The notes under the pieces: model-generated
What the model was told of the DNA's origin: nothing
What the model saw: only the letters and a program-made list of their open reading frames with translations
Database searches by the model: none
Shown here: positions 144 to 12,362 of the stretch, one piece after another
Layout: every line of letters starts with the position of its first letter
Numbering within the stretch: the stretch's first letter is position 1
UHGV virus genome: UHGV-0135626
Strand: one strand, 5' to 3'
DNA length: 36,007 bases
Source: a virus
Position numbers and translations under genes: made by a program

Positions 144-710
144 TTAATCATTCAATAATCTATATTTTCTTTTGATTAAATCTTCACCTTTTTTGGTGAA
201 CACAAAACCAAATTGCGATTTTTTGTTCAGCCTAAGGACTCTGTTATCCAACGCATCGGTTGATGGAATCAATGTTTGATCATCTATCCAATTAAGTAGC
301 GTAAGAAAGTTCAGCAGCCTCAACGTTGTTGTGCGAAGCTCTTTCGATATATTTTCAATGCTGGCAATTCGTCTTTCTTTTTTCTCAGGTGGTACAGATA
401 ATTGTTCTTGAGGTTTCGTGGGTAGATAATCAATTTCGTTTGCTGAATCGAATGATATGTGTGGCGTAATTTTGCTAAAAAAGCCTTTCGCTGACTCACT
501 TGATAATAAACCAGACCTATTCATATCGTTTGTTATTCTGTACAGGAGTGGACTGTGTTTCATTTCAGGATAACGTTGATAAAAGTTAAGCAATTCAAAA
601 GCAGCATTAGCACCAACAAGAAAATCAGAAGGATCGCTGACTTTCCAGAAAGAATGATTTTTCTTAGCGCCAGTGGTGTCAACAAATGATAATTCTTTTA
701 ACCAACTCAT
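144..710 (-). CDS. Hypothetical protein, about 188 aa, last gene of the helicase operon
   Basis: ORF track 144-743. Start moved to the internal ATG at 710 (MSWLKEL...), which has a strong SD (AAAGGAG, 6-nt spacer); the ATG at 743 has none. No recognisable motif. Confidence 0.55.
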   Translation of the reverse strand: MSWLKELSFVDTTGAKKNHSFWKVSDPSDFLVGANAAFELLNFYQRYPEMKHSPLLYRITNDMNRSGLLSSESAKGFFSKITPHISFDSANEIDYLPTKPQEQLSVPPEKKERRIASIENISKELRTTTLRLLNFLTLLNWIDDQTLIPSTDALDNRVLRLNKKSQFGFVFTKKGEDLIKRKYRLLND

Positions 711-775
711 GATGTGCTCCTTTCTAACAAGTGAGCACATCATAGAATTAGTAGATAGGGGGTAAATATGAAATG

Positions 776-1054
776 TTACGGCAACCTGCTCAGTATTTCC
801 TCTAGATCTTTTTTTGTCATATTGGAGTTCTCATAGATGCGCATGATTTTCTCACGCGTCTTAGCGGAAACCCCAACGGCAGATGTGACTTTGTCAAATT
901 CAGCCATAGTCATCGTCTCCAGAATGGCATTGATAACTTCAGCCTTAGACATCTTGATTTTTTTCTCTTTGAGTTTTATTTGAAATTTTCCAAGTTTTTC
1001 ATTGGCCTTATCAGACAATGCCACTTGGCAATAAGTTGTTTTCTTTTCGCTCAT
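776..1054 (-). CDS. Small hypothetical protein, 92 aa, possibly DNA-binding
   Basis: Complete ORF starting 2 nt after the helicase stop, same strand. Lys-rich; no clear catalytic motif. Confidence 0.55.
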   Translation of the reverse strand: MSEKKTTYCQVALSDKANEKLGKFQIKLKEKKIKMSKAEVINAILETMTMAEFDKVTSAVGVSAKTREKIMRIYENSNMTKKDLEEILSRLP

Positions 1055-1056
1055 AA

Positions 1057-2616
1057 CTAATCTCGTTTCAGAACTCCAAAATCGAATGCTCCATCAATAG
1101 GCAATACACCTTCTGCAAAGCCAGGTGTGGTGTCGATGATGTGTTTTCGCTCATAAGAGTGAGACAACAGGTATTTGTTGCTAATGTCAATGAAATCAGT
1201 GATAAAACACACGTTTGCCTGATTCTTCTTGGCTCGTAAGCCACGACCGACACGCTGTCTCATTTCAACTTCTGCTTTCCCACCACCAGCAAGAATGACC
1301 GCGCCCACACTTGGCACATCAACACCGACATCCAGAATAGTCGAGCCTATTAAAACATCTATTTCGCCAGACGCTAAACTGTTCAGCTTTGCTTGCCTTG
1401 TCGTCTGGTTAGATTCCCCATAGATGAAATCAACTCTAAGACCTGACTCCTTCATCATCTCCATCAGGATTTGCCCGTGGCGTTTAAGACGAACCAGAGT
1501 CATGCAGTTGAGTGAATGTTGCTTATAAAGCAATGCCTCGCGCACTATGGCCTCGTTACGTCCCAAATTATACACGATCCCCAACTGATAAGCCTTTTGG
1601 TAGGCGGTGCTCATACCAACTCTAAAATTGAGGTGTTTGTTGGCAAGTTCGGCCTTGATTCTGGCCTCGTCTGGCTTGTAGGCAACTTTATGATAAAGGA
1701 AGTACGGCTTTGCCAGAATGCCTCGATCAATCAGGTACTTTTCTGTGACTTTAATTTCAATTCGCCCGGCCACCGCCATCAGGCGCATGTTGGCTTCCGT
1801 CGAATCCTTCATGAACGGCGTGGCTGTAAGCGCCAGACGATAGTCTGCGTTCACACATAATCTGGCGATGTCATAGAAATTTGAGCCTGAAGACTCATGC
1901 GCCTCTTCCAGAATAAGAAGAGAGACACTTGAAAGGAAGCGTTTCACCAACTCCCGACGTTTGAGGTGGTAGCTTTTCTTATCTGGTGTTGCATCGCGTG
2001 GTGGTTCTTCGAGGAAACTTGCAAGAGTTTGAACTGTAGCGACGTTGATATGTCGTGATACCTGGAACTCACCCGAGCCAATGACTCCAACCTTTTGGTC
2101 TTTTAACCACGGTTCGCCATTTTCGGCGCGGTAGTCGATGGATCTCTGGAAGTTTTCGGCCATTTGAAACATCAGAACAGAGCGGGTTGTTAAAAATAAT
2201 GTCATTCGACCGATACGTGCAGCTGCTTTGCAGGCAACGTTAGATTTCCCACCACCAGTAGCGATCTGGGCAATCATCATTCCCTCGCGAACTAGTGTTT
2301 CCACAGCCTGATCCTGATATGCATAATCAGGATTGTATGGGAATGGGTTAACCGCCGGATTTGGCTTTCCAAGCGCCGGGGCTTTGTCTTTGCGGATATG
2401 AACACATTTGATGCCCGACTTGTTCAAGTTCGCCGCTACAGGCTTGGCAAAGCCAGCAGGGAACGAGTTTTTACTCCAGTTGAACATCGTGCTTGTGCCC
2501 TTCCAGTCGCCAGTCTCGACTTCGTAGCTCAACATTTGCTGCACCAGTTGCTTTACCTTGTCATCTGCGCCAGAAATAAGCGCATTTACTGCGTTAGATA
2601 CAATCCGAACAGTCAT
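1057..2616 (-). CDS. Superfamily 2 DEAD/DEAH-box helicase (ResIII/UvsW-like)
   Basis: 519-aa ORF with Walker A IATGGGKSN, motif II LILEEAHE, motif III LTATP, motif VI QRVGRGLR. A small gene directly downstream recalls the T4 uvsW/uvsW.1 arrangement (analogy only). Confidence 0.85.
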   Translation of the reverse strand: MTVRIVSNAVNALISGADDKVKQLVQQMLSYEVETGDWKGTSTMFNWSKNSFPAGFAKPVAANLNKSGIKCVHIRKDKAPALGKPNPAVNPFPYNPDYAYQDQAVETLVREGMMIAQIATGGGKSNVACKAAARIGRMTLFLTTRSVLMFQMAENFQRSIDYRAENGEPWLKDQKVGVIGSGEFQVSRHINVATVQTLASFLEEPPRDATPDKKSYHLKRRELVKRFLSSVSLLILEEAHESSGSNFYDIARLCVNADYRLALTATPFMKDSTEANMRLMAVAGRIEIKVTEKYLIDRGILAKPYFLYHKVAYKPDEARIKAELANKHLNFRVGMSTAYQKAYQLGIVYNLGRNEAIVREALLYKQHSLNCMTLVRLKRHGQILMEMMKESGLRVDFIYGESNQTTRQAKLNSLASGEIDVLIGSTILDVGVDVPSVGAVILAGGGKAEVEMRQRVGRGLRAKKNQANVCFITDFIDISNKYLLSHSYERKHIIDTTPGFAEGVLPIDGAFDFGVLKRD

Positions 2617-2657
2617 AAACCTCTTTCCTTAGTGCCTTTTGTATGTTATTTGGCTAT

Positions 2658-2680
2658 TATAATAAGTAAGTGATTACTTA
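2658..2680 (+). promoter_or_regulatory. Candidate promoter/operator: consensus -10 hexamer abutting a palindrome
   Basis: Perfect TATAAT at 2658-2663, then TAAGTAA-gtga-TTACTTA (7-bp arms, 2663-2680) ending at the first codon of the ParB-like operon. The -35 element is weak. Confidence 0.35.
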
Positions 2681-3379
2681 GTGTATTGTAGCAATAAAAT
2701 GGATGTAAAAATCACGATTTTGCAGGTTGATGTTGCCAACCTTCGCCCGAATACCTGGAACACCAATTCGGTTGGTGCGCAGAATTTTGAAAAACTGAAA
2801 GGTTCTATCGAAAAATTGGGCTTTTTTAAGCCAATTTTGGCTCGTGAACTTGAAGATGGATTTTTTGAAATCCTCGGCGGCGAACATCGCTGGCGTGCCG
2901 CTATTGAGCAAGGAATTTCAACGGTTCCAGTGCTTTCTGTGGGCAAAATTAGCGATGTCGTAGCTAAACAGATGTCACTGGTGGACAACGAGCGATACGG
3001 TGAAGACGACCAAATCGCATTGCAACGCTTCATTGAAGAAATTCAGTCAGAACTTGACTATCAACTGTCTGAAATCGCCCCGTATGACGACGAAATCTCG
3101 ATGGTTTTAGCAAAAGAGGCGGCAATCGACCTTGAAGCACTGGAGGCGTTGTCTCGTGGTAGTGATGAGCCTGTCGATACCGACAAACGAGAGAAAACCG
3201 AACGTGTGGGTGCGGAACATCAGACCATGCGCTTCAAAGTAACTTTCGATGCGTCAGATCGTGTTGCAGAAACCATAAAAAACATCATCAAAGAGCAGGC
3301 TATTAACACCGGTAATGAAATGGAGAACGCTGGTGAGGCTCTGGTGTGGCTGGTCGACTACTACAAGGAGCGTATGTAA
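2681..3379 (+). CDS. ParB/Srx-like nuclease-domain protein, copy 1
   Basis: ORF begins with GTG at 2681 (alternative ATG at 2699); neither has a strong SD. ParB N-terminal box FEILGGEHRWRAAIEQG; acidic C-terminal half. Stop overlaps the next start (TAATG at 3377-3381). Confidence 0.75.
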   Translation: MYCSNKMDVKITILQVDVANLRPNTWNTNSVGAQNFEKLKGSIEKLGFFKPILARELEDGFFEILGGEHRWRAAIEQGISTVPVLSVGKISDVVAKQMSLVDNERYGEDDQIALQRFIEEIQSELDYQLSEIAPYDDEISMVLAKEAAIDLEALEALSRGSDEPVDTDKREKTERVGAEHQTMRFKVTFDASDRVAETIKNIIKEQAINTGNEMENAGEALVWLVDYYKERM

Positions 3380-4047
3380 TGACCAAAAAGTTTGAAATCG
3401 TATATCGCGACCCGGCAGATCTTATTCCCTATGAGATGAATGCCAAAAAGCATGATGAACAGCAGATCAGAGATCTGGCCGCAGCCATTAAAAAGCGCGG
3501 ATTTGACCAGCCAATTACGGTCGATAAGAACGACGTAATTATTACTGGTCATGGCCGCCGTGAGGCTGCAATTTTTGCTGGACTTGAGCGCGTACCGGTT
3601 ATTGTTCGCGATGATCTCAGTGATGACGAGGTTCGTGCGAAGCGCCTTGAAGATAACCGACTTGCCAGCATTGATTACGATGCAATTAAGCTACAGAAAG
3701 AGCTTGAGTCGCTTGTTCTGGACGATATCGAGGTTTTCGGCTTTGAAGAGCGTGAGTTGAATGTTCTCGTTGGCAGTATGACAGAAGAAATGGACACCGA
3801 CTCGCTAGTTATCGATCTTGGCGAAGAAACTAAACGACAGAAGGATGAACACACCGAGATCAGTCGTGAAGTTGCAGCGGAAGAAGTACGTGTTGTCGAC
3901 GTATTGGGCTTTAAAACGCTTCCTGCTGGCTCTGCCATTGTTGTTGGTGATTTGCTTGCCCACATGGAAGAAATGACGGGAGAAAGCGGGGTAGACGCAT
4001 TTGTGGCATATGCGGAGAAGATCTCTTCCGGGGAGATGGCTGCATGA
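3379..4047 (+). CDS. ParB/Srx-like nuclease-domain protein, copy 2
   Basis: Start taken at ATG 3379 (MTKKFEIV), overlapping the upstream stop; the track ORF begins at 3346. ParB box IITGHGRREAAIFAG; acidic C-terminal region. Confidence 0.75.
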   Translation: MTKKFEIVYRDPADLIPYEMNAKKHDEQQIRDLAAAIKKRGFDQPITVDKNDVIITGHGRREAAIFAGLERVPVIVRDDLSDDEVRAKRLEDNRLASIDYDAIKLQKELESLVLDDIEVFGFEERELNVLVGSMTEEMDTDSLVIDLGEETKRQKDEHTEISREVAAEEVRVVDVLGFKTLPAGSAIVVGDLLAHMEEMTGESGVDAFVAYAEKISSGEMAA

Positions 4048-4709
4048 GCAAATACATCATCAACGTATCGTTTCAGACACGCGTAAATAAAACCACGCGC
4101 ACGTTGGAAATCGCTGAGTCGTTCGGGCTTGGTCTGGACGAAAAAGAGTGGACGCTTTACGACAATCTGGAGCTGGAAGTGAAGCAGGGCGATGTGGTGT
4201 ACATCACCGGCCAATCCGGTTCCGGCAAATCCGTTGTGCTGCGCGAGTTGCAACGACAGATGAAGGATGAAGGGTTGTCTGTAGCCTCCATCGATGATTT
4301 TACCTTCGATAATGAGGTTAACGTCATCGATCAGTTGGGCAAAACGACCAGTGATGCGCTTGGGTTGTTATCTATGGCTGGTCTGAACGATGCATATCTG
4401 TTTGTTCGCAAGCCTTCTGAAATGTCAGACGGTCAGAAATATCGTCTCAAGATTGCCAAACTGATTGAGTCAGGCGCTAAAGTGTGGGCTGCTGACGAGT
4501 TCGGTGCTGTTTTAGACCGTGTAACCGCTCAGGTTGTGGCATCTAACCTCCAGCGTGTCGCTCGAAAGGTTGGTGCGACGGTAATGGTGGCGACGACTCA
4601 CGAAGACCTGAAGAACGCGCTGCGCCCGGATATGCAGATCACCAAGCACTACAAAGAACGCGTGAAGGTGGAATATCACAATGGCAGTCATGATGAGGTC
4701 CATTCATGA
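4044..4709 (+). CDS. Stand-alone ABC-type ATPase, nucleotide-binding domain only
   Basis: 221 aa. Walker A GQSGSGKS, signature-like SDGQKYRL, Walker B VWAADEF, H-loop TTHED. SD GGGGAG 8 nt upstream; ATGA overlap with both neighbours. No membrane domain or partner. Confidence 0.8.
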   Translation: MSKYIINVSFQTRVNKTTRTLEIAESFGLGLDEKEWTLYDNLELEVKQGDVVYITGQSGSGKSVVLRELQRQMKDEGLSVASIDDFTFDNEVNVIDQLGKTTSDALGLLSMAGLNDAYLFVRKPSEMSDGQKYRLKIAKLIESGAKVWAADEFGAVLDRVTAQVVASNLQRVARKVGATVMVATTHEDLKNALRPDMQITKHYKERVKVEYHNGSHDEVHS

Positions 4710-5596
4710 CGGACATCATCATTAAACGCTACCGCCCTGAAGAGTTTCCGCGTCATCTGGACTTTCTGGAGCGAATGACTGTCACAAAGGGAACTGTAGA
4801 GGACTGGCACGCTCTTAAGTCGCTTCACTACAAAACAGACGGCAAACCTTTCGCGCCAACTTACTATCGCTGCGAACTTGATGACCGTCTGGTGGGCGTC
4901 GTGGTTATGGCTTACCCGAAACTACTGTTGGCACCTCGCCACCGCATGTTTCCTAAGTTGAAACCAACCACTAATACCACCGTGGCTAACCAGTACTGGG
5001 GTCGGTACGTGAATAACAACTTTGCGGTGATCAGTCGCTCAGTTGTGGATACTCAGTATCGTGGCGTAGGCGTCTCTTATCGAATGATTAACCTGGTTAG
5101 CAGGATGCATGACCGGCCAATCATTGAGATCCAGTCCTCGATGAGCAAATACAATCCCTTCGCCATGAAAGCAGGGTTTAAGTTCATCCGCCCTGAGCGA
5201 CCGAAGAGCTATGAAAGTGCACTGCGTGTATTCCAGCGCCATTTCCGTTCCGACCCGGGTGATAACGAGGCGATCGTCAAAGAGTTGTTCGCAATGAGCG
5301 AGTCTCGTCGTCGCCGTGCACTGCGTGATCTGGTGGCGGACTACCACAAGAACAGTTCCCTGGCAAAAGCTGGGCGGAATCGTGGCACGACGATTCAGGA
5401 CATTGCCGACAGTCTGGTGGACGAGGCCAGCATTGTGAAGCTGCTCAAGGACATTCACAACCTGAGCTTTACGTCTCCGTTGTATGGTGTGTACCGAAAC
5501 CCTGACTTTGGCCGTCGACTGCCTGACACGCTGCCACTGCTGGCATTCGACAAACAACCTTTGGATAAACCGTTAGAAATTGCTTTACCGGCATAA
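4706..5596 (+). CDS. GNAT-like acyltransferase-domain protein with a C-terminal extension of about 120 aa
   Basis: 296 aa. GNAT acyl-CoA motif QYRGVGVSYRMI and downstream NPFAMKAGFKF. SD GAGG 7 nt upstream; ATGA overlap with the ABC ATPase stop. Confidence 0.6.
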   Translation: MTDIIIKRYRPEEFPRHLDFLERMTVTKGTVEDWHALKSLHYKTDGKPFAPTYYRCELDDRLVGVVVMAYPKLLLAPRHRMFPKLKPTTNTTVANQYWGRYVNNNFAVISRSVVDTQYRGVGVSYRMINLVSRMHDRPIIEIQSSMSKYNPFAMKAGFKFIRPERPKSYESALRVFQRHFRSDPGDNEAIVKELFAMSESRRRRALRDLVADYHKNSSLAKAGRNRGTTIQDIADSLVDEASIVKLLKDIHNLSFTSPLYGVYRNPDFGRRLPDTLPLLAFDKQPLDKPLEIALPA

Positions 5597-5605
5597 GGAT
5601 TTGCC

Positions 5606-5872
5606 ATGACGTTAACCGATAAACAAAAGGACATCATCAAAACGCTCAATCTCGGTTATGAGCGAGGTCATCTACTTGACCTGGACGAATTGCTTGAAGT
5701 TTTGCCGTACAAGACAACCAAGCAAAGTATCCAGTTCTCAATTCGCGCTCTGATAAAAAAGGGGCTGGTGGAGAAAGGGCATACGCGCCAACGCAGTGAC
5801 AATCGCTATCACCGCCGAACTCTTGGGTTAACCACTTTAGGTCGAGCCAAAGCGAAGTTACTGGTGATGTAA
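5606..5872 (+). CDS. Small basic protein, putative winged-helix DNA-binding regulator
   Basis: 88 aa, SD AAGGA 5 nt upstream, 9 nt after the GNAT gene stop. Basic C-terminus (RQRSDNRYHRRTLG); the helix-turn-helix assignment is pattern-level only. Confidence 0.5.
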   Translation: MTLTDKQKDIIKTLNLGYERGHLLDLDELLEVLPYKTTKQSIQFSIRALIKKGLVEKGHTRQRSDNRYHRRTLGLTTLGRAKAKLLVM

Positions 5873-5896
5873 TCGGTCTGGGAGCTTATTTAAAGA

Positions 5897-5951
5897 CCTG
5901 CTTCTGTATATATAAATAATAAGAAACTTATTAAATATATACGGAAGCAGG
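5897..5951. repeat. Long imperfect inverted repeat with an AT-rich interior
   Basis: CCTGCTTC (5897-5904) pairs with GAAGCAGG (5944-5951); the interior also pairs imperfectly (tgtatatat...atatatacg). Confidence 0.5.
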
Positions 5952-5990
5952 CTTAATAAGACATGCCCAGACCTAATTAAACACCCCAGA

Positions 5991-6059
5991 AAACAAGTTG
6001 GTTAGCAGATGCAGTAAACAAGTTGTTTTAGAGCGCATGGACGCGCTCTGTGTGTTTTA
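5991..6059 (+). promoter_or_regulatory. Repeat cluster upstream of terS; candidate regulatory or packaging-recognition region
   Basis: AAACAAGTTG twice (5991-6000, 6016-6025), the second forming the near-palindrome AAACAAgTTGTTT (6016-6028). GTTTTAGAG twice (6023-6031, 6051-6059) flanking hairpin AGAGCGC-atggac-GCGCTCT. No clean sigma70 -35/-10 found. Confidence 0.35.
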
Positions 6060-6068
6060 GAGGGATCT

Positions 6069-6701
6069 ATGACGGTCGAAAAAGACGAGGTAAAAACTCG
6101 CCTGACACCAGCGGAGTGGGCCGAAGCTGAAGCCAAATGGACGTCAGGCGAATATACACTCTCAAAGCTGGAGGAAGAGTACGGCATTCGTCGTGAAACA
6201 CTCTCCAGACATTTCAAAAAGCGAGGATTAGAGAAAGGCGCGGACTCTGTTGGGAAGATGGTTCGTGAGTCTCTTAAATCTGACGCAGAGCTTCGCGCTA
6301 AAGCCCGTGCGGAAAAGATAGAAGAACGTCGTACACGTTATGACGGCTGGGCGTATGCGTTGGGGCAGATGGTGATGGTCGAAGTCACTACGGCCAAACG
6401 TGAGGGTAAGCCTTTAGGGGCGATTGAGGATTCTCTCAAGAGCTTACAGAGAGCAAGTAATACCCTTGCAAAATGCTTTGAAGTTTCGTCCAAAGCATTG
6501 GGCATGGATCATGCGGAAAATGACGAGGAAGAAATTCCGAACCTGGTATTTGGTGAGCTTACGCCTTCCCAGGTGGCGAAATTACGTCAGGAAGACGACG
6601 AGCCTGAAATCATCGATGACGAATTGCTTGAGACGTTGGAAGAAGAAGCTCTAAGCGAATTTGATGCGACAGATGATGGAAGTGAAGGGGAGGACGAATA
6701 A
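6069..6701 (+). CDS. terS: Terminase small subunit
   Basis: 210 aa immediately upstream of terL with TAATG overlap. N-terminal HTH-like segment (YTLSKLEEEYGIRRETLSRHFKKRG) and a very acidic C-terminus. SD AGAGGGA. Confidence 0.65.
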   Translation: MTVEKDEVKTRLTPAEWAEAEAKWTSGEYTLSKLEEEYGIRRETLSRHFKKRGLEKGADSVGKMVRESLKSDAELRAKARAEKIEERRTRYDGWAYALGQMVMVEVTTAKREGKPLGAIEDSLKSLQRASNTLAKCFEVSSKALGMDHAENDEEEIPNLVFGELTPSQVAKLRQEDDEPEIIDDELLETLEEEALSEFDATDDGSEGEDE

Positions 6702-7957
6702 TGGCAATCCCGTCCTCGCTCAGTCTTGTGCAACTGCATTCTGGACAGATGAAAGTCTTCCAGTCTCCGCATCGATTTAAAGTTGTTTGTGCTGGTCGAC
6801 GCTGGGGAAAATCCCGGTTGTCGATCTCCACTATTATTCGTGCGGCGGCAAAGGAAAAAAAGCAAAGGGTCTGGTATGTCGCTCCTACTTACCAGATGGC
6901 TCGCCAGATTTTGTGGGACGATCTACAGGAAGTTCTGCCTCGTAAGTGGGTTAGGAAAAAGAACGACACCACGATGACAATCGTGTTGAAGAACGGTTCG
7001 GAGATCGCCCTCAAAGGTGCTGATAAGCCTGACACTCTGCGCGGCGTAGCGTTGCATTTTGTAGTGCTTGATGAATTTCAGGATATGAAGGCTGACACCT
7101 GGTACAAGGTGTTACGACCTACTCTTTCATCGACACGCGGCGGTGCACTGATCATTGGTACGCCAAAAGGCTTCTCGGAATTTCACAAACTGTGGACTAT
7201 AGGCCAGAACGTAGAGCTGCAAAGAAAGGGACAGTGGAAGAGCTGGCAGTTTGTAACTGCCGATTCTCCGTTTGTACCTACGGCGGAAATTGAAGCTGCT
7301 AAGAACGATATGGACCCGAAATCGTTCGCTCAGGAGTACCTGGCGAGCTTTGAGAACATGTCCGGGCGCGTTTACTACCCGTTCGATCGTAACGTGCATG
7401 TAAAACCGCTTCAGTTCAACCCTCGGTTGCCTATATGGGTAGGGCAGGACTTCAACATTGACCCGATGTCTTCAGTAATTTTGCAACCTCAGCCAAATGG
7501 TGAGCTATGGGCAATTGATGAATTGGTGCTCTTTTCCTCTAACACGGCAGAGGTTTGTGATGAGCTTGAGAGACGCTTCTGGCGCTGGAAATCACAGATA
7601 ACGGTATTTCCAGATCCGGCAGGTGCTTATCGCCAACATGCTCGCGGGGAGTCTGACGTCGACATATTCAAAGAGAAGGGATTCTTACGTGTCGATTATT
7701 CGAAAAAGCACCCGCCAATTGCGGATCGTGTTAATGCTGTTAACCGAATGCTGATGACCGCATCTGGAGATATCCGGCTGTATATCGATCCGAAGTGCAA
7801 GCATTTGATTGATTCACTGGAAAAAGTCATCTACAAGCCTGGAACACGAGATATGGATAAGACAGGTGGCATTGAGCATAGTGCAGACGCATTGGGCTAT
7901 CCAGTACATCGTAGGTATCCAGTCAAAAACCGTGTTATTCTTGGTGGTTCTCGATAG
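6701..7957 (+). CDS. terL: Terminase large subunit (ATPase and nuclease)
   Basis: 418 aa. Walker A-like VVCAGRRWGKS, Walker B HFVVLDEFQDM, acidic residues in the C-terminal half; sits directly upstream of the portal gene. Confidence 0.8.
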   Translation: MAIPSSLSLVQLHSGQMKVFQSPHRFKVVCAGRRWGKSRLSISTIIRAAAKEKKQRVWYVAPTYQMARQILWDDLQEVLPRKWVRKKNDTTMTIVLKNGSEIALKGADKPDTLRGVALHFVVLDEFQDMKADTWYKVLRPTLSSTRGGALIIGTPKGFSEFHKLWTIGQNVELQRKGQWKSWQFVTADSPFVPTAEIEAAKNDMDPKSFAQEYLASFENMSGRVYYPFDRNVHVKPLQFNPRLPIWVGQDFNIDPMSSVILQPQPNGELWAIDELVLFSSNTAEVCDELERRFWRWKSQITVFPDPAGAYRQHARGESDVDIFKEKGFLRVDYSKKHPPIADRVNAVNRMLMTASGDIRLYIDPKCKHLIDSLEKVIYKPGTRDMDKTGGIEHSADALGYPVHRRYPVKNRVILGGSR

Positions 7958-7983
7958 GTAAGTAATTATCTAAGGTTATTCAA

Positions 7984-9558
7984 ATGGAATTGAACGACAA
8001 ACAAATTAAGGATCTGGTGGCGCGACGCCACCCGGAATACGAAAAGAAAAAAGAACATTGGGACTTCCTCGCCAGCACTTACGCTGGCGGGCGTGGTTGG
8101 TTTACAGACAATATCTTTCGTTACTTTAAAGAGGGAGATCAGGAGTTTAAGGAGCGAGTTGAACGTGCTTATCGCTTCAACCACACTCGTGAGGTGGTAA
8201 ACCTCATCAACAAATATCTCTTTAAAGAAGACATTCATAGAAATATCGAAGAGGCACCAGAGCAGATCCGCAATTTCTGGAAACGTGCGACTCGCCAGAA
8301 TGCCTCTATTGACTCATTTATGGCCGCTATTGATTTGCAGTCGTCTATTTACGGTCGCATATGGGTTGTTGTCGATAGCACGATGAGTGGTGATGTTGAG
8401 TCAGTAGCTGACGAGAAAAAGAAAGATGCTCGCGCCTACGCCTACTGGATTTCACCTCAGCAAATGCTGGATGTGGCATGGGACGACGACGGGAATATGT
8501 TGTGGGCGTTAATTGTGGAAGTCGCTCGTGATGACGCAGATCCTTTTACTTCTACAGGTCAGGAATACCAACGTTATCGTCTGTGGACACAAAACGAGTG
8601 GTATCTGTTCCGTGAGGAAGTGAAGAAGGGCGCTGGTGGAGCAGGTCGCCGTCAGGCAAAAGTTATTTTAGAGGATAGCGGTGAGCATAATCTCGGCGTA
8701 GTTCCTGTGTTTCCTGTTGATTGTATTGGAGAAAGTGAATCACCGTATTTCAGCCCATCGTTGATCGATGATATCGCTTATCTTGATCGTGCGGTTGCAA
8801 ACTATCTGTCAAACCTTGATGCCATTATTCAGGATCAGACATTTAGCCAGTTGGCTATACCGGTACAGTCGCTTTTACCTGGTGATGAAAACCACACTAA
8901 AGTGCTTGAAATGGGCACAAAGCGAGTCTTCACCTACGATTCTGAAGGTGGAAACCAGCCGTTTTATCTGTCACCAGACCCGAAACAAGCTCAGATGATC
9001 ATCACTACGATTAAGACGGTGATTAACGAAATCTACCATTCAGTTGGTGTAGCTGGTGAGCGAACGAAGCAGGACAACGCACAGGGAATCGATAATTCAT
9101 CTGGTGCCGCAAAAATGTATGACTTCCAGCGTGTAAATAGCTTGCTTGTCACAAAAGCAGAGCGTCTGGAAAGGGCTGAACGCCAAATCATGCTACTGGT
9201 TGCGAAATGGATGGGGGTAGATCTGGACGAAGACCACTCTTTAATTGCGTATCCAGAAAGTTTCGATATTCGTGGCCTTACTGATGAATTTTCTGTTGCC
9301 GAGAAACTGTCATTACTTCAGGCACCGGACTCTGTACGTCGTCACCAGATGGAAATGCTTATTGAGAAGATTTTCCCGAACATTACTGAGGCGATGAAAA
9401 AGGAATTTGATAAAGATCTCTTGAATTTTCCTCCAAAAAATGATCTAAATACCCTTGAAAATAAGTCAGTACTTACTTATGATCGTGGTGCGGCCCAAGA
9501 AAGCGGGCAAGATCAACCCCGAGGGAATGGGGACTCATCTACTCAAGAGAACGAGTGA
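7984..9558 (+). CDS. Portal protein
   Basis: 524-aa ORF directly after terL, with an acidic and Gly-rich C-terminus; assigned by size and conserved gene order. Confidence 0.75.
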   Translation: MELNDKQIKDLVARRHPEYEKKKEHWDFLASTYAGGRGWFTDNIFRYFKEGDQEFKERVERAYRFNHTREVVNLINKYLFKEDIHRNIEEAPEQIRNFWKRATRQNASIDSFMAAIDLQSSIYGRIWVVVDSTMSGDVESVADEKKKDARAYAYWISPQQMLDVAWDDDGNMLWALIVEVARDDADPFTSTGQEYQRYRLWTQNEWYLFREEVKKGAGGAGRRQAKVILEDSGEHNLGVVPVFPVDCIGESESPYFSPSLIDDIAYLDRAVANYLSNLDAIIQDQTFSQLAIPVQSLLPGDENHTKVLEMGTKRVFTYDSEGGNQPFYLSPDPKQAQMIITTIKTVINEIYHSVGVAGERTKQDNAQGIDNSSGAAKMYDFQRVNSLLVTKAERLERAERQIMLLVAKWMGVDLDEDHSLIAYPESFDIRGLTDEFSVAEKLSLLQAPDSVRRHQMEMLIEKIFPNITEAMKKEFDKDLLNFPPKNDLNTLENKSVLTYDRGAAQESGQDQPRGNGDSSTQENE

Positions 9559-11441: not shown

Positions 11442-12362
11442 ATGCCAGAACAAAAGATGAAGATTACGGAAGAGGCATTTTCGGATTTTACGGGGCATAT
11501 GTGCCGTGCCGGATTTACCAATTCTATCTCCGATGAACCTTTAACCGAGCGACAACAAAGTCAGCTATCTGCTTGTTTGCAGGCGGTTCCCTTCTCCCAA
11601 TCCGTAAACATAACCCCGGCTTCACCGTCAGTTTTGGTTGGGAAAACTGTTCAACTTAGTGCAGGTATTACTATGGGTAAGAGTGCCAGTTCATTCACCT
11701 GGAAGTCAGCCAATGATCAAATTGCAACCGTCAACGGCACTGGATTAGTAACTGGCGTAGCACCAGGCAAAGTGAAAATTACCGCAACTGATCAGGAAAC
11801 CCAGCTTTCCGCGTCAGTGGAAGTCACCGTAAATCCGGTAGCCGTTCAATCCGTAACGGTAACGCCAGACTCAACCTCTGTTGAGAAAGGGAAATCAGTC
11901 AGTCTGAAAGCGAATGTTCAGCCGTCAAATGCGACGAATAAGGCAGTTACCTGGTCTTCCAAAAATGAAGACAAGGCAACGGTAGACCAGAGCGGGAACG
12001 TTACTGGTGTAGAAGTTGGCACTGCGACGATTGAGATCGTTTCCCAAGATGGCAGCAAAAAGGCAACTGCAACGGTGGAAGTAACTGCGCCTGTTGTGGC
12101 TGTTACTGGTGTCGAAATCGACCCAAATAGCACAACCGTTGAGGCAAACAAAACTGTTCAGCTGACCGCAAATGTCGAGCCGGCAGGAGCAACAAATAAA
12201 ACCGTTACTTGGGAATCCAAAAATACCGAGTTTGCAACGGTGGACAGCGAAACCGGTGTTGTAACTGGTGTTGCGGCTGGCACTGCCACAATCGAGGTTA
12301 CTACCCAAGATGGTAGCCACAAAGCGACAGCGACTGTAGAAGTTACTGTCGCACAGGAATAA
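11442..12362 (+). CDS. Ig-like (Big_2-type) repeat protein, probable head decoration protein
   Basis: 306 aa with three tandem Ig-like units of about 80 aa, each with a KAVTWxSKN...ATVDxxGxVTGV...GTATIE pattern. SD AGGAG 6 nt upstream. Confidence 0.7.
   Translation: MPEQKMKITEEAFSDFTGHMCRAGFTNSISDEPLTERQQSQLSACLQAVPFSQSVNITPASPSVLVGKTVQLSAGITMGKSASSFTWKSANDQIATVNGTGLVTGVAPGKVKITATDQETQLSASVEVTVNPVAVQSVTVTPDSTSVEKGKSVSLKANVQPSNATNKAVTWSSKNEDKATVDQSGNVTGVEVGTATIEIVSQDGSKKATATVEVTAPVVAVTGVEIDPNSTTVEANKTVQLTANVEPAGATNKTVTWESKNTEFATVDSETGVVTGVAAGTATIEVTTQDGSHKATATVEVTVAQE

Follow-up and report, generated by a model that had tools for sequence, protein, structure and literature searches.

The window analyzed here, a stretch of 36,007 nucleotides of the virus genome UHGV-0135626, carries between a helicase gene and the terminase genes an operon of five genes (g1 to g5) that we read, with a probability of roughly one half, as coding for a multi-subunit acyltransferase driven by nucleoside triphosphates (NTP) and acting on the phage's own double-stranded DNA (dsDNA). 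This reading is supported by natural fusions of its core to DNA-handling domains, by the association with the gene of the large terminase subunit (terL) in three different gene architectures, and by the invariance of the catalytic motifs, as well as by the basic character of g4, for which Mom is the top match in a viral structure library, and by precedents of ParB proteins acting as helpers of DNA-modifying enzymes. Over the region, the window shares 99.4% identity with Escherichia phage Cyrano, 85% with Salmonella phage SSU5 and ca. 81% with Klebsiella phage-plasmids so that, judging by these identities, its source is an SSU5-like phage-plasmid.

All five open reading frames (ORFs) are on the plus strand, flanked on one side by the divergent helicase and on the other by a terS-like gene, terL and a presumed portal gene (Table 1), and their products belong to PHROG families 723, 930, 293, 886 and 900. 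The domains originally assigned to them (two ParB/Srx proteins, an ABC nucleotide-binding domain [NBD], a GNAT fold and a small DNA-binding protein) proved correct in every case. Translational coupling by stop-to-start overlaps is also borne out by the junction sequences, since the stop of g1 (TAA, 3377-3379) and the start of g2 (ATG, 3379-3381) form TAATG, and the g2/g3 and g3/g4 pairs share an ATGA at 4044-4047 and 4706-4709, respectively. The last gene starts with an ATG at 5606, after the stop of g4 (5594-5596) and a 9-nt spacer containing AGGA. For g1, the GTG at 2681 first taken as the start is unlikely, and the ATG at 2699 is the likelier one, as in the Cyrano annotation. The AT-rich region between the helicase and g1 is presumably the putative promoter region of the operon; it has an exact TATAAT at 2658-2663, a good -35 hexamer is absent, and a consensus promoter scan of 2617..2698 called no promoter.

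The two genes at the center of our reading are g3 and g4. The product of g3 is a minimal yet complete ABC NBD, with an N-terminal family-specific motif (ESFGLGLDE), and is collinear with the N-terminal half of single-chain ABC-GNAT proteins (phmmer E values of 1e-50 to 1e-65). The GNAT protein g4 is strongly basic, with a net charge of about +15. In relatives at ca. 40% identity, the Walker A, Walker B and signature motifs of the ABC domain, the RxxGxS of the GNAT and the GxxR of the ParB proteins are all invariant. Comparison with a viral structure library gave Mom as the best match for g4, within a generic GNAT resemblance, and other matches there include several long "endonuclease-like" phage proteins; no PDB sequence matched g4 significantly by phmmer. 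The extension of 120 amino acids (aa) described earlier for this protein is probably an insert rather than a separate C-terminal domain: from the order of the secondary structures in the model, it looks like a helical insertion (residues ca. 165 to 255) followed by two terminal strands with the invariant YGxYxNP. The label of g4 in phage and metagenome records echoes the COG/IMG name [quoted passage not shown]

Fusions in distant viruses also bear on a common function of these genes. Searching 1.8 billion representatives with a profile of the g4 family recovered 911 relatives, many of which are single chains of 450 to 500 aa with the ABC domain followed by the GNAT, i.e., in the same order as g3-g4. 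Four cluster representatives, of ca. 670 to 700 aa, have an N-terminal ParB domain and a Zn-ribbon ahead of the ABC-GNAT, and this N-terminal domain matches the ParB family of the window (hhalign probability of 97.9%, E value of 6e-13). At one locus (L167), the gene for such a triple fusion directly precedes a 158-aa gene, terL and portal, and a separate ParB with both ParB_N and HTH_ParB domains is also found there. In two other representatives (P0201 and P0180), a family-B DNA polymerase (PolB) precedes the ABC-GNAT; the former is one continuous ORF of 1260 aa (5580-9362 in locus L154), and no terL was detected in that locus. Single representatives have an intein inside the ABC domain or a C-terminal TFIIB repeat. 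The fusion partners that could be identified are all DNA-handling domains. The view that the genes act as one unit is strongly backed by the ABC-GNAT, ParB-ABC-GNAT and PolB-ABC-GNAT fusions, together with the near-invariant synteny described below.

Some of these fusions deserve a comment of their own. The set with odd architectures (PolB, intein, TFIIB) comprises P0201, P0180, P0164 and P0155, and the TFIIB repeat suggests archaeal viruses. Many fused ABC-GNAT genes lie less than ca. 1 kb from contig ends. Three further proteins of 880 to 900 aa (P0193, P0204 and P0240, L170 8001-10637) have a region of ca. 400 aa before the ABC-GNAT, with a P-loop, a weak match to the packaging ATPase Pox_A32 (E value of 0.016) and, after the P-loop, a PD-(D/E)xK-like motif judged by eye. 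This N-terminal region had no match among PDB profiles and might be a terminase-like ATPase-nuclease module.

The two-domain fusions also tend to be found next to terL, which is found no more than 400 bp upstream in 55 of 80 viral contigs and immediately downstream in 4, although these loci are mutually related and the adjacency does not amount to 80 independent events. One of them, annotated by Pfam and PHROGs, reads tail genes, 150-aa gene, terL, ABC-GNAT. A ParB is detectable near only 1 of the 80, so it is not an obligatory partner. Since terL adjoins most of these fusions while ParB hardly ever does, the invariant core is the ABC plus the GNAT, usually next to terL, with ParB frequent rather than universal. 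The three architectures found beside terL (split genes, triple fusion and two-domain fusion) are more nearly independent observations than the 80 loci.

Both the relatedness of these loci and the rarity of ParB around them weigh against the operon being a DNA acyltransferase with ParB helpers, and other points do as well. By an NCBIfam scan, g3 is nearer to transporter-type NBDs than to the DNA-binding SMC, Rad50 and UvrA clades. In comparisons with the PDB, Mom is not specifically close to g4, and the GNAT match is generic. Two hairpins part g5 from terS, so that the operon may not be transcribed together with the packaging genes. Finally, we found no direct evidence that the virion DNA of any module-carrying phage is modified.

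That every architecture is tightly linked to terS and terL also fits a role as an accessory of packaging or of the nucleoprotein, in which the ParBs and the ABC ATPase would organize or process concatemers for the terminase and the GNAT would acetylate a co-packaged polyamine or a protein, which could be the terminase, the portal, a nucleoid protein of the host or one of the ParBs. We consider this unlikely, although acetylation of ParB is reported to control its DNA binding in Streptomyces (PMC7229854), and g3 is ABC transporter-like and not SMC-like. The PolB-ABC-GNAT of L154 is poorly explained by packaging alone, and no co-varying candidate protein substrate was found. Besides, methylases and dioxygenases commonly adjoin ParB and terminase genes in phages and, because DNA-modifying enzymes are so often found there, the position does not imply a mechanical packaging role.

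We assessed the conservation of gene order in 80 diverse IMG/VR loci, scoring each neighbor only where the flank was long enough; distant relatives were gathered by scans of viral contigs seeded with distant members. Upstream, ParB2 was present in 57/57 loci, ParB1 and ABC in 54/57 each and the divergent helicase in 56/57; downstream, both terS and terL were present in 63/63, and the small winged helix-turn-helix (wHTH) gene followed the GNAT gene in 52/63 (phmmer). The commonest order (39 loci) is helicase (divergent), ParB1, ParB2, ABC, GNAT, small gene, terS, terL and portal, and it is kept at ca. 45% identity in relatives that include one in a 3.3-Mb contig, one in an Ectothiorhodospira assembly and one in a marine contig. 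Conserved linkage in related elements, set beforehand as a test of the original prediction, is thus present by co-occurrence count. Among cultured phages, the module is found in the lytic Pseudomonas phage nickie and Rhizobium phage RHEph10 and in Stenotrophomonas and Xanthomonas phages. Because the order is near-invariant in diverse loci and is retained in lytic phages, the operon is, on this comparative evidence, a core module of a large lineage of 100- to 120-kb siphoviruses, including the SSU5-like phage-plasmids, and not cargo. It was found in 247 of 5,426 complete Escherichia coli genomes, with every copy on a plasmid, and on 757 PLSDB plasmids of Klebsiella, Escherichia, Enterobacter, Yersinia, Salmonella and others, the matching Salmonella and Yersinia plasmids being presumably of the pHCM2 and pMT1 kind.

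The sole variable spot is the ABC/GNAT junction (4706-4709 in the window), where relatives hold one to three small unrelated genes and the window none. It is an insertion hotspot in SSU5 and in Klebsiella, Pseudomonas, Rhizobium and environmental relatives, and the inserts (coordinates in Table 1) include Phage_gp49_66, RyR-domain and DUF2829 proteins.

Such a hotspot of small variable genes could be expected if the operon were a conflict effector acting on host or competitor DNA, nucleotides or immune components (superinfection exclusion, host takeover or anti-defense), with the ParB/Srx proteins as NTPases or nickases and the GNAT inactivating a target. ParB/Srx proteins of mobile elements are indeed often non-specific nickases or NTPases in conflicts (PMC5512222, PMC10853773), and g3 had weak PADLOC matches to the MADS components mad3 and mad8. 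However, the PADLOC scan of the operon proteins gave only partial matches to generic ParB and ATPase regions, none for g4, and no defined system. The fixed core, with its near-invariant order, is unlike variable defense or anti-defense cargo, and the module is kept in lytic phages and phage-plasmids alike. We regard a conflict role as distinctly improbable, and the carried defense system that was among the first suggestions is not supported, given the same fixed core and the lack of a meaningful PADLOC match.

The two ParB-like proteins are paralogues with 23% identity, each with a separate set of orthologues in distant relatives. Both score over the curated Pfam cut-off for ParB_N of 26.3 bits (49.9 bits for g1 and 35.2 for g2), and ParB_N alone was detected, with no HTH_ParB in either by Pfam scan. 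Both are acidic (isoelectric point [pI] of ca. 4.5), strongly so at residues 81 to 160, and beyond ParB_N g1 consists of an acidic middle segment and a short C-terminal domain. A family alignment with distant relatives shows no change at the G and R of the GxxR pocket motif in either paralogue. The second protein also matches phrog_498, a ParB-methyltransferase family, and, via its ParB domain, the PADLOC MTase_II model; elsewhere, proteins of the g2 type are fused to phage DNA methyltransferases.

RefSeq and phage records label g1 and g2 as "ParB/RepB/Spo0J family partition protein," as if they were centromere-binding ParBs of the phage-plasmid. The plasmid location of all the E. coli copies would agree with that, as would the orphan MinD/ParA-like ATPase of Cyrano (CYRAN_99, OV696614 89738-90838), which has no adjacent ParB-type gene. 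Nevertheless, a partition role is very improbable. The operon has no ParA and the MinD-like gene of Cyrano is ca. 14 kb off, the NCBIfam ParB scores are far under their cut-offs (43 bits versus 58.45 for parB_part), the ParB domain occurs fused to ABC-GNAT, and the operon is found in the lytic nickie and RHEph10 and in the 3.3-Mb, presumably chromosomal, contig. Without an HTH, without an adjacent ParA and with the module also present in lytic phages, the identification of g1 and g2 as canonical ParABS ParBs was rejected.

The PHROG and GenBank names "ABC transporter" and "ABC transporter ATP-binding subunit" would make the operon a moron or auxiliary-metabolic transporter. It is true that g3 is a genuine ABC NBD and that transporter NBDs are its top matches in NCBIfam, but all the NCBIfam matches of the operon proteins, those to transporter models included, are generic and far under the family cut-offs. 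A membrane partner is absent (in a search for transmembrane segments in the operon proteins, the top 19-residue Kyte-Doolittle mean was 1.46, under the usual value for a transmembrane helix), g4 is a GNAT and not an ATP-binding subunit, and the fusion partners are DNA-handling domains. This leaves the name with almost no probability, and with no permease partner in the operon a transporter is effectively refuted. A second small protein of this stand-alone type, annotated as "ABC transporter ATP-binding protein" (CYRAN_75, 214 aa, OV696614 74621-75265), is encoded in Cyrano within a cluster of nucleotide-metabolism genes that also codes for ThyX, polynucleotide kinase, DHFR and an exonuclease.

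How could a DNA acyltransferase of this kind work? The products of g3 and g4 would be the catalytic core and the counterpart of the ABC-GNAT enzymes that other viruses make as a single chain. The ABC domains, closing with ATP, would engage or remodel the DNA, the inferred substrate, and the GNAT would then move an acyl group from acyl-CoA, the likely donor, to the exocyclic amine of a base. The ParB-like g1 and g2 may be nucleotide-gated clamps or activators that make duplex DNA accessible to the enzyme, as in the ParB-dependent thymine dioxygenases, and g5 might target the complex to DNA or autoregulate the operon. As for the timing, the terminase neighborhood would tie the modification to DNA bound for packaging, so that the virion DNA would be shielded from restriction in the next host.

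For a GNAT driven by ATP that acts on the exocyclic amine of a base, the closest mechanistic analogy would be TmcA/NAT10/Kre33, in which a GNAT and a P-loop ATPase use acetyl-CoA and ATP hydrolysis for the N4 acetylation of RNA cytidine. Their ATPase is helicase-like, their substrate is tRNA or rRNA, they have neither ParB nor phage context, and homology with g4 is claimed only at the level of the GNAT superfamily. The closest phage precedent for a GNAT on DNA is Mom of phage Mu, which carries out an acyl modification at the N6 of adenine. Mom and g4 share the GNAT fold, the encoding by a phage, the proposed substrate (the amine of a base in duplex DNA) and, presumably, the purpose of countering restriction, but Mom stands alone, whereas in the whole g4 family the GNAT is coupled or fused to an ABC ATPase.

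Precedents for ParB helpers are more recent. In experiments by O'Toole et al. (PNAS 2026, PMC13229309), the phage thymine dioxygenase 5mYOX176 was activated on dsDNA by a ParB-like phage protein, ParB176, that it requires there; ParB176 has an NTP-binding N-domain and a C-terminal domain and lacks a DNA-binding domain. In the preprint of the same study, ParBs (27%) and terminases (19%) were among the commonest neighbors of such enzymes. From the Pfam scan and the family alignment, the architecture of g1 and g2 (N-domain plus C-domain, without HTH) appears to fit that of the 5mYOX-associated ParB, and in both cases an HTH-less ParB lies beside a post-replicative DNA-modifying enzyme (a presumed one in the operon), often near terminase genes. 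The partner of ParB176 is, however, an Fe(II)/2-oxoglutarate dioxygenase with a single ParB, while the operon has an ABC-GNAT and two ParBs, whose requirement is only proposed. The ParB-like ATPase DpdB likewise supports the base exchange in DNA by DpdA (PMC12839542). Together with the ParB-methyltransferase fusions found near terminases, this is another case of a ParB/Srx NTPase accompanying a base-modifying enzyme, as we propose for the operon, with a different chemistry, i.e., transglycosylation or methylation versus the presumed acyl transfer.

Contrary to the initial impression that the combination of genes matches no module that can be named, all five have PHROG families, g4 carries a label of its own, and both an ABC-coupled GNAT and a ParB-terminase locus had already been predicted. 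Iyer et al. (NAR 2013; Aravind's group, cited in PMC7824862) predicted that an ABC-coupled GNAT acyl-modifies a DNA base, and a ParB-terminase locus was described as DNA modification during packaging (PMC4738411). As described there, their system shares with the operon a ParB/Srx, an ABC ATPase and a GNAT beside terL in phages and prophages. The coupled GNAT and ABC, the ParB/Srx in the locus and the adjacency to terL are all found in the operon. Unlike the fused system of that account, the ABC and the GNAT are here separate coupled genes, accompanied by two ParB paralogues and a wHTH protein, and the carriers are SSU5-like and clinically widespread. The module is a further case of this computationally predicted kind of DNA modification, which is for the moment a prediction, and we found no experimental work on the ABC-GNAT module in the literature. 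Modification of DNA by a Mom-like GNAT, as first suggested for the operon, is the reading best supported by the fusions, the synteny and the motifs, while the acylation itself is deduced.

The last gene of the operon, g5, gave an AlphaFold model (predicted local distance difference test [pLDDT] of 83.6) with an H-H-H-beta-beta-H topology that resembles MarR, PadR and archaeal wHTH proteins (Foldseek template modeling [TM] scores of 0.70 to 0.78). Directly after its stop there is an imperfect palindrome with a minimum free energy of -50.6 kcal/mol (z = -11.1; 0/200 shuffles were as stable), the core of which (CCTGCTTCTGTATATA...TATATACGGAAGCAGG) is kept in Klebsiella phage pJN2-26. Candidate roles for this palindrome are transcription termination, RNA processing, service as the operator of the wHTH protein, and a function related to the packaging site (pac). 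A second, terminator-like hairpin is located just before terS and is also kept in pJN2-26; it is flanked by direct repeats at 5987-6003 and 6012-6028 (CAGAAAACAAGTTGGTT and CAGTAAACAAGTTGTTT), and the interval 5987-6062 contains two copies of TGTTTTAGAG. This combination of repeats and hairpin suggests a regulated read-through or a translational control of the terminase genes. Given the two hairpins between g5 and terS, g1 to g5 may be a transcription unit separate from the terminase genes. The portal gene after terL was named by its position and by homologues in related loci.

Elsewhere in the window, the first kilobase (1-1000) has a GC content of 0.37 versus ca. 0.47 for the rest. Directly after the major capsid gene, there is a 306-aa protein (11442-12362) with three Big_2 Ig-like repeats (E value of 2e-69) that is probably a capsid decoration protein.

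Table 1. Features of the operon and its surroundings (window coordinates, except for the junction inserts, which are given in those of their own loci).
Feature	Position	Strand	Evidence
Minus-strand gene downstream of helicase, function not assigned	144-743	-	phrog_13473
Minus-strand gene downstream of helicase, function not assigned	776-1054	-	phrog_1466
Superfamily 2 (SF2; UvsW/DEAD-like) helicase, outside operon	1057..2616	-	Pfam ResIII, DEAD, Helicase_C; context
AT-rich divergent intergenic region, 82 bp	2617..2698	.	Read from sequence
g1, ParB/Srx N-domain protein 1, 226 aa, pI 4.55	2699..3379	+	Pfam ParB_N E 3e-13; phrog_723 E 1.5e-79
g1 GxxR motif GGEHRWRAA	2876-2902	+	Motif search
g2, ParB/Srx N-domain protein 2, 222 aa, pI 4.53	3379..4047	+	Pfam ParB_N E 1.3e-8; phrog_930 E 1e-112
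g2 motif TGHGRREAA	3544-3570	+	Motif search
g3, stand-alone ABC NBD, 221 aa	4044..4709	+	Pfam ABC_tran 50.1 bits; phrog_293
g3 Walker A GQSGSGKS	4209-4232	+	Motif search
g3 signature SDGQ	4425-4436	+	Motif search
g3 Walker B WAADEF	4485-4502	+	Motif search
g3 H-loop TTHE	4593-4604	+	Motif search
g4, GNAT-fold acyltransferase, 296 aa, pI 9.8	4706..5596	+	GNAT fold; phrog_886
g4 acyl-CoA motif RGVGVS	5060-5077	+	Motif search
g4 invariant EIQSSMS	5126-5146	+	Motif search
g4 invariant YGVYRNPD	5483-5506	+	Motif search
g5, winged-helix DNA-binding protein, 88 aa, pI 10.2	5606..5872	+	AlphaFold; Foldseek; phrog_900
Imperfect palindrome/hairpin, ca. 100 nt, directly 3' of g5 stop	5875..5973	+	Folding
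Terminator-like GC hairpin and T-rich tail, 18 nt 5' of terS start	6029..6050	+	Sequence scan
terS-like acidic DNA-binding protein	6069..6701	+	phrog_867 E 2e-100; context
terL, large terminase subunit	6701..7957	+	Pfam Terminase_6N 37.2 bits, over cut-off; context
Junction insert, L255	2176-2430		
Junction insert, L256	3277-3828		
Junction insert, L002	7705-7995		
Junction insert, L003	6961-7999		
Junction insert, L173	5161-5496		

More broadly, and with less assurance than for the operon itself, we tentatively propose that SSU5-like phage-plasmids and many environmental tailed viruses mark their DNA after replication with an acylated base not described so far (adenine, cytosine or guanine carrying an N-acetyl or another N-acyl group, for instance), by means of an ATP-driven ABC-GNAT brought onto the duplex by two ParB clamps. 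If so, natural DNA modification would gain a new chemical class and ABC ATPases a new task, and an ATP-dependent acyltransferase would join the known routes to modified DNA. It would also provide a second experimental case of ParBs repurposed as helpers of DNA-modifying enzymes, and explain the tie of the module to the terminase genes across very distant viruses. The labels "partition protein" and "ABC transporter" mislead studies of the maintenance and cargo of phage-plasmids. The operon would instead represent an uncharacterized pathway in tractable phages such as SSU5, which grows on rough strains of Salmonella LT2, and Cyrano and PhiR41_1, which do so on E. coli K-12.

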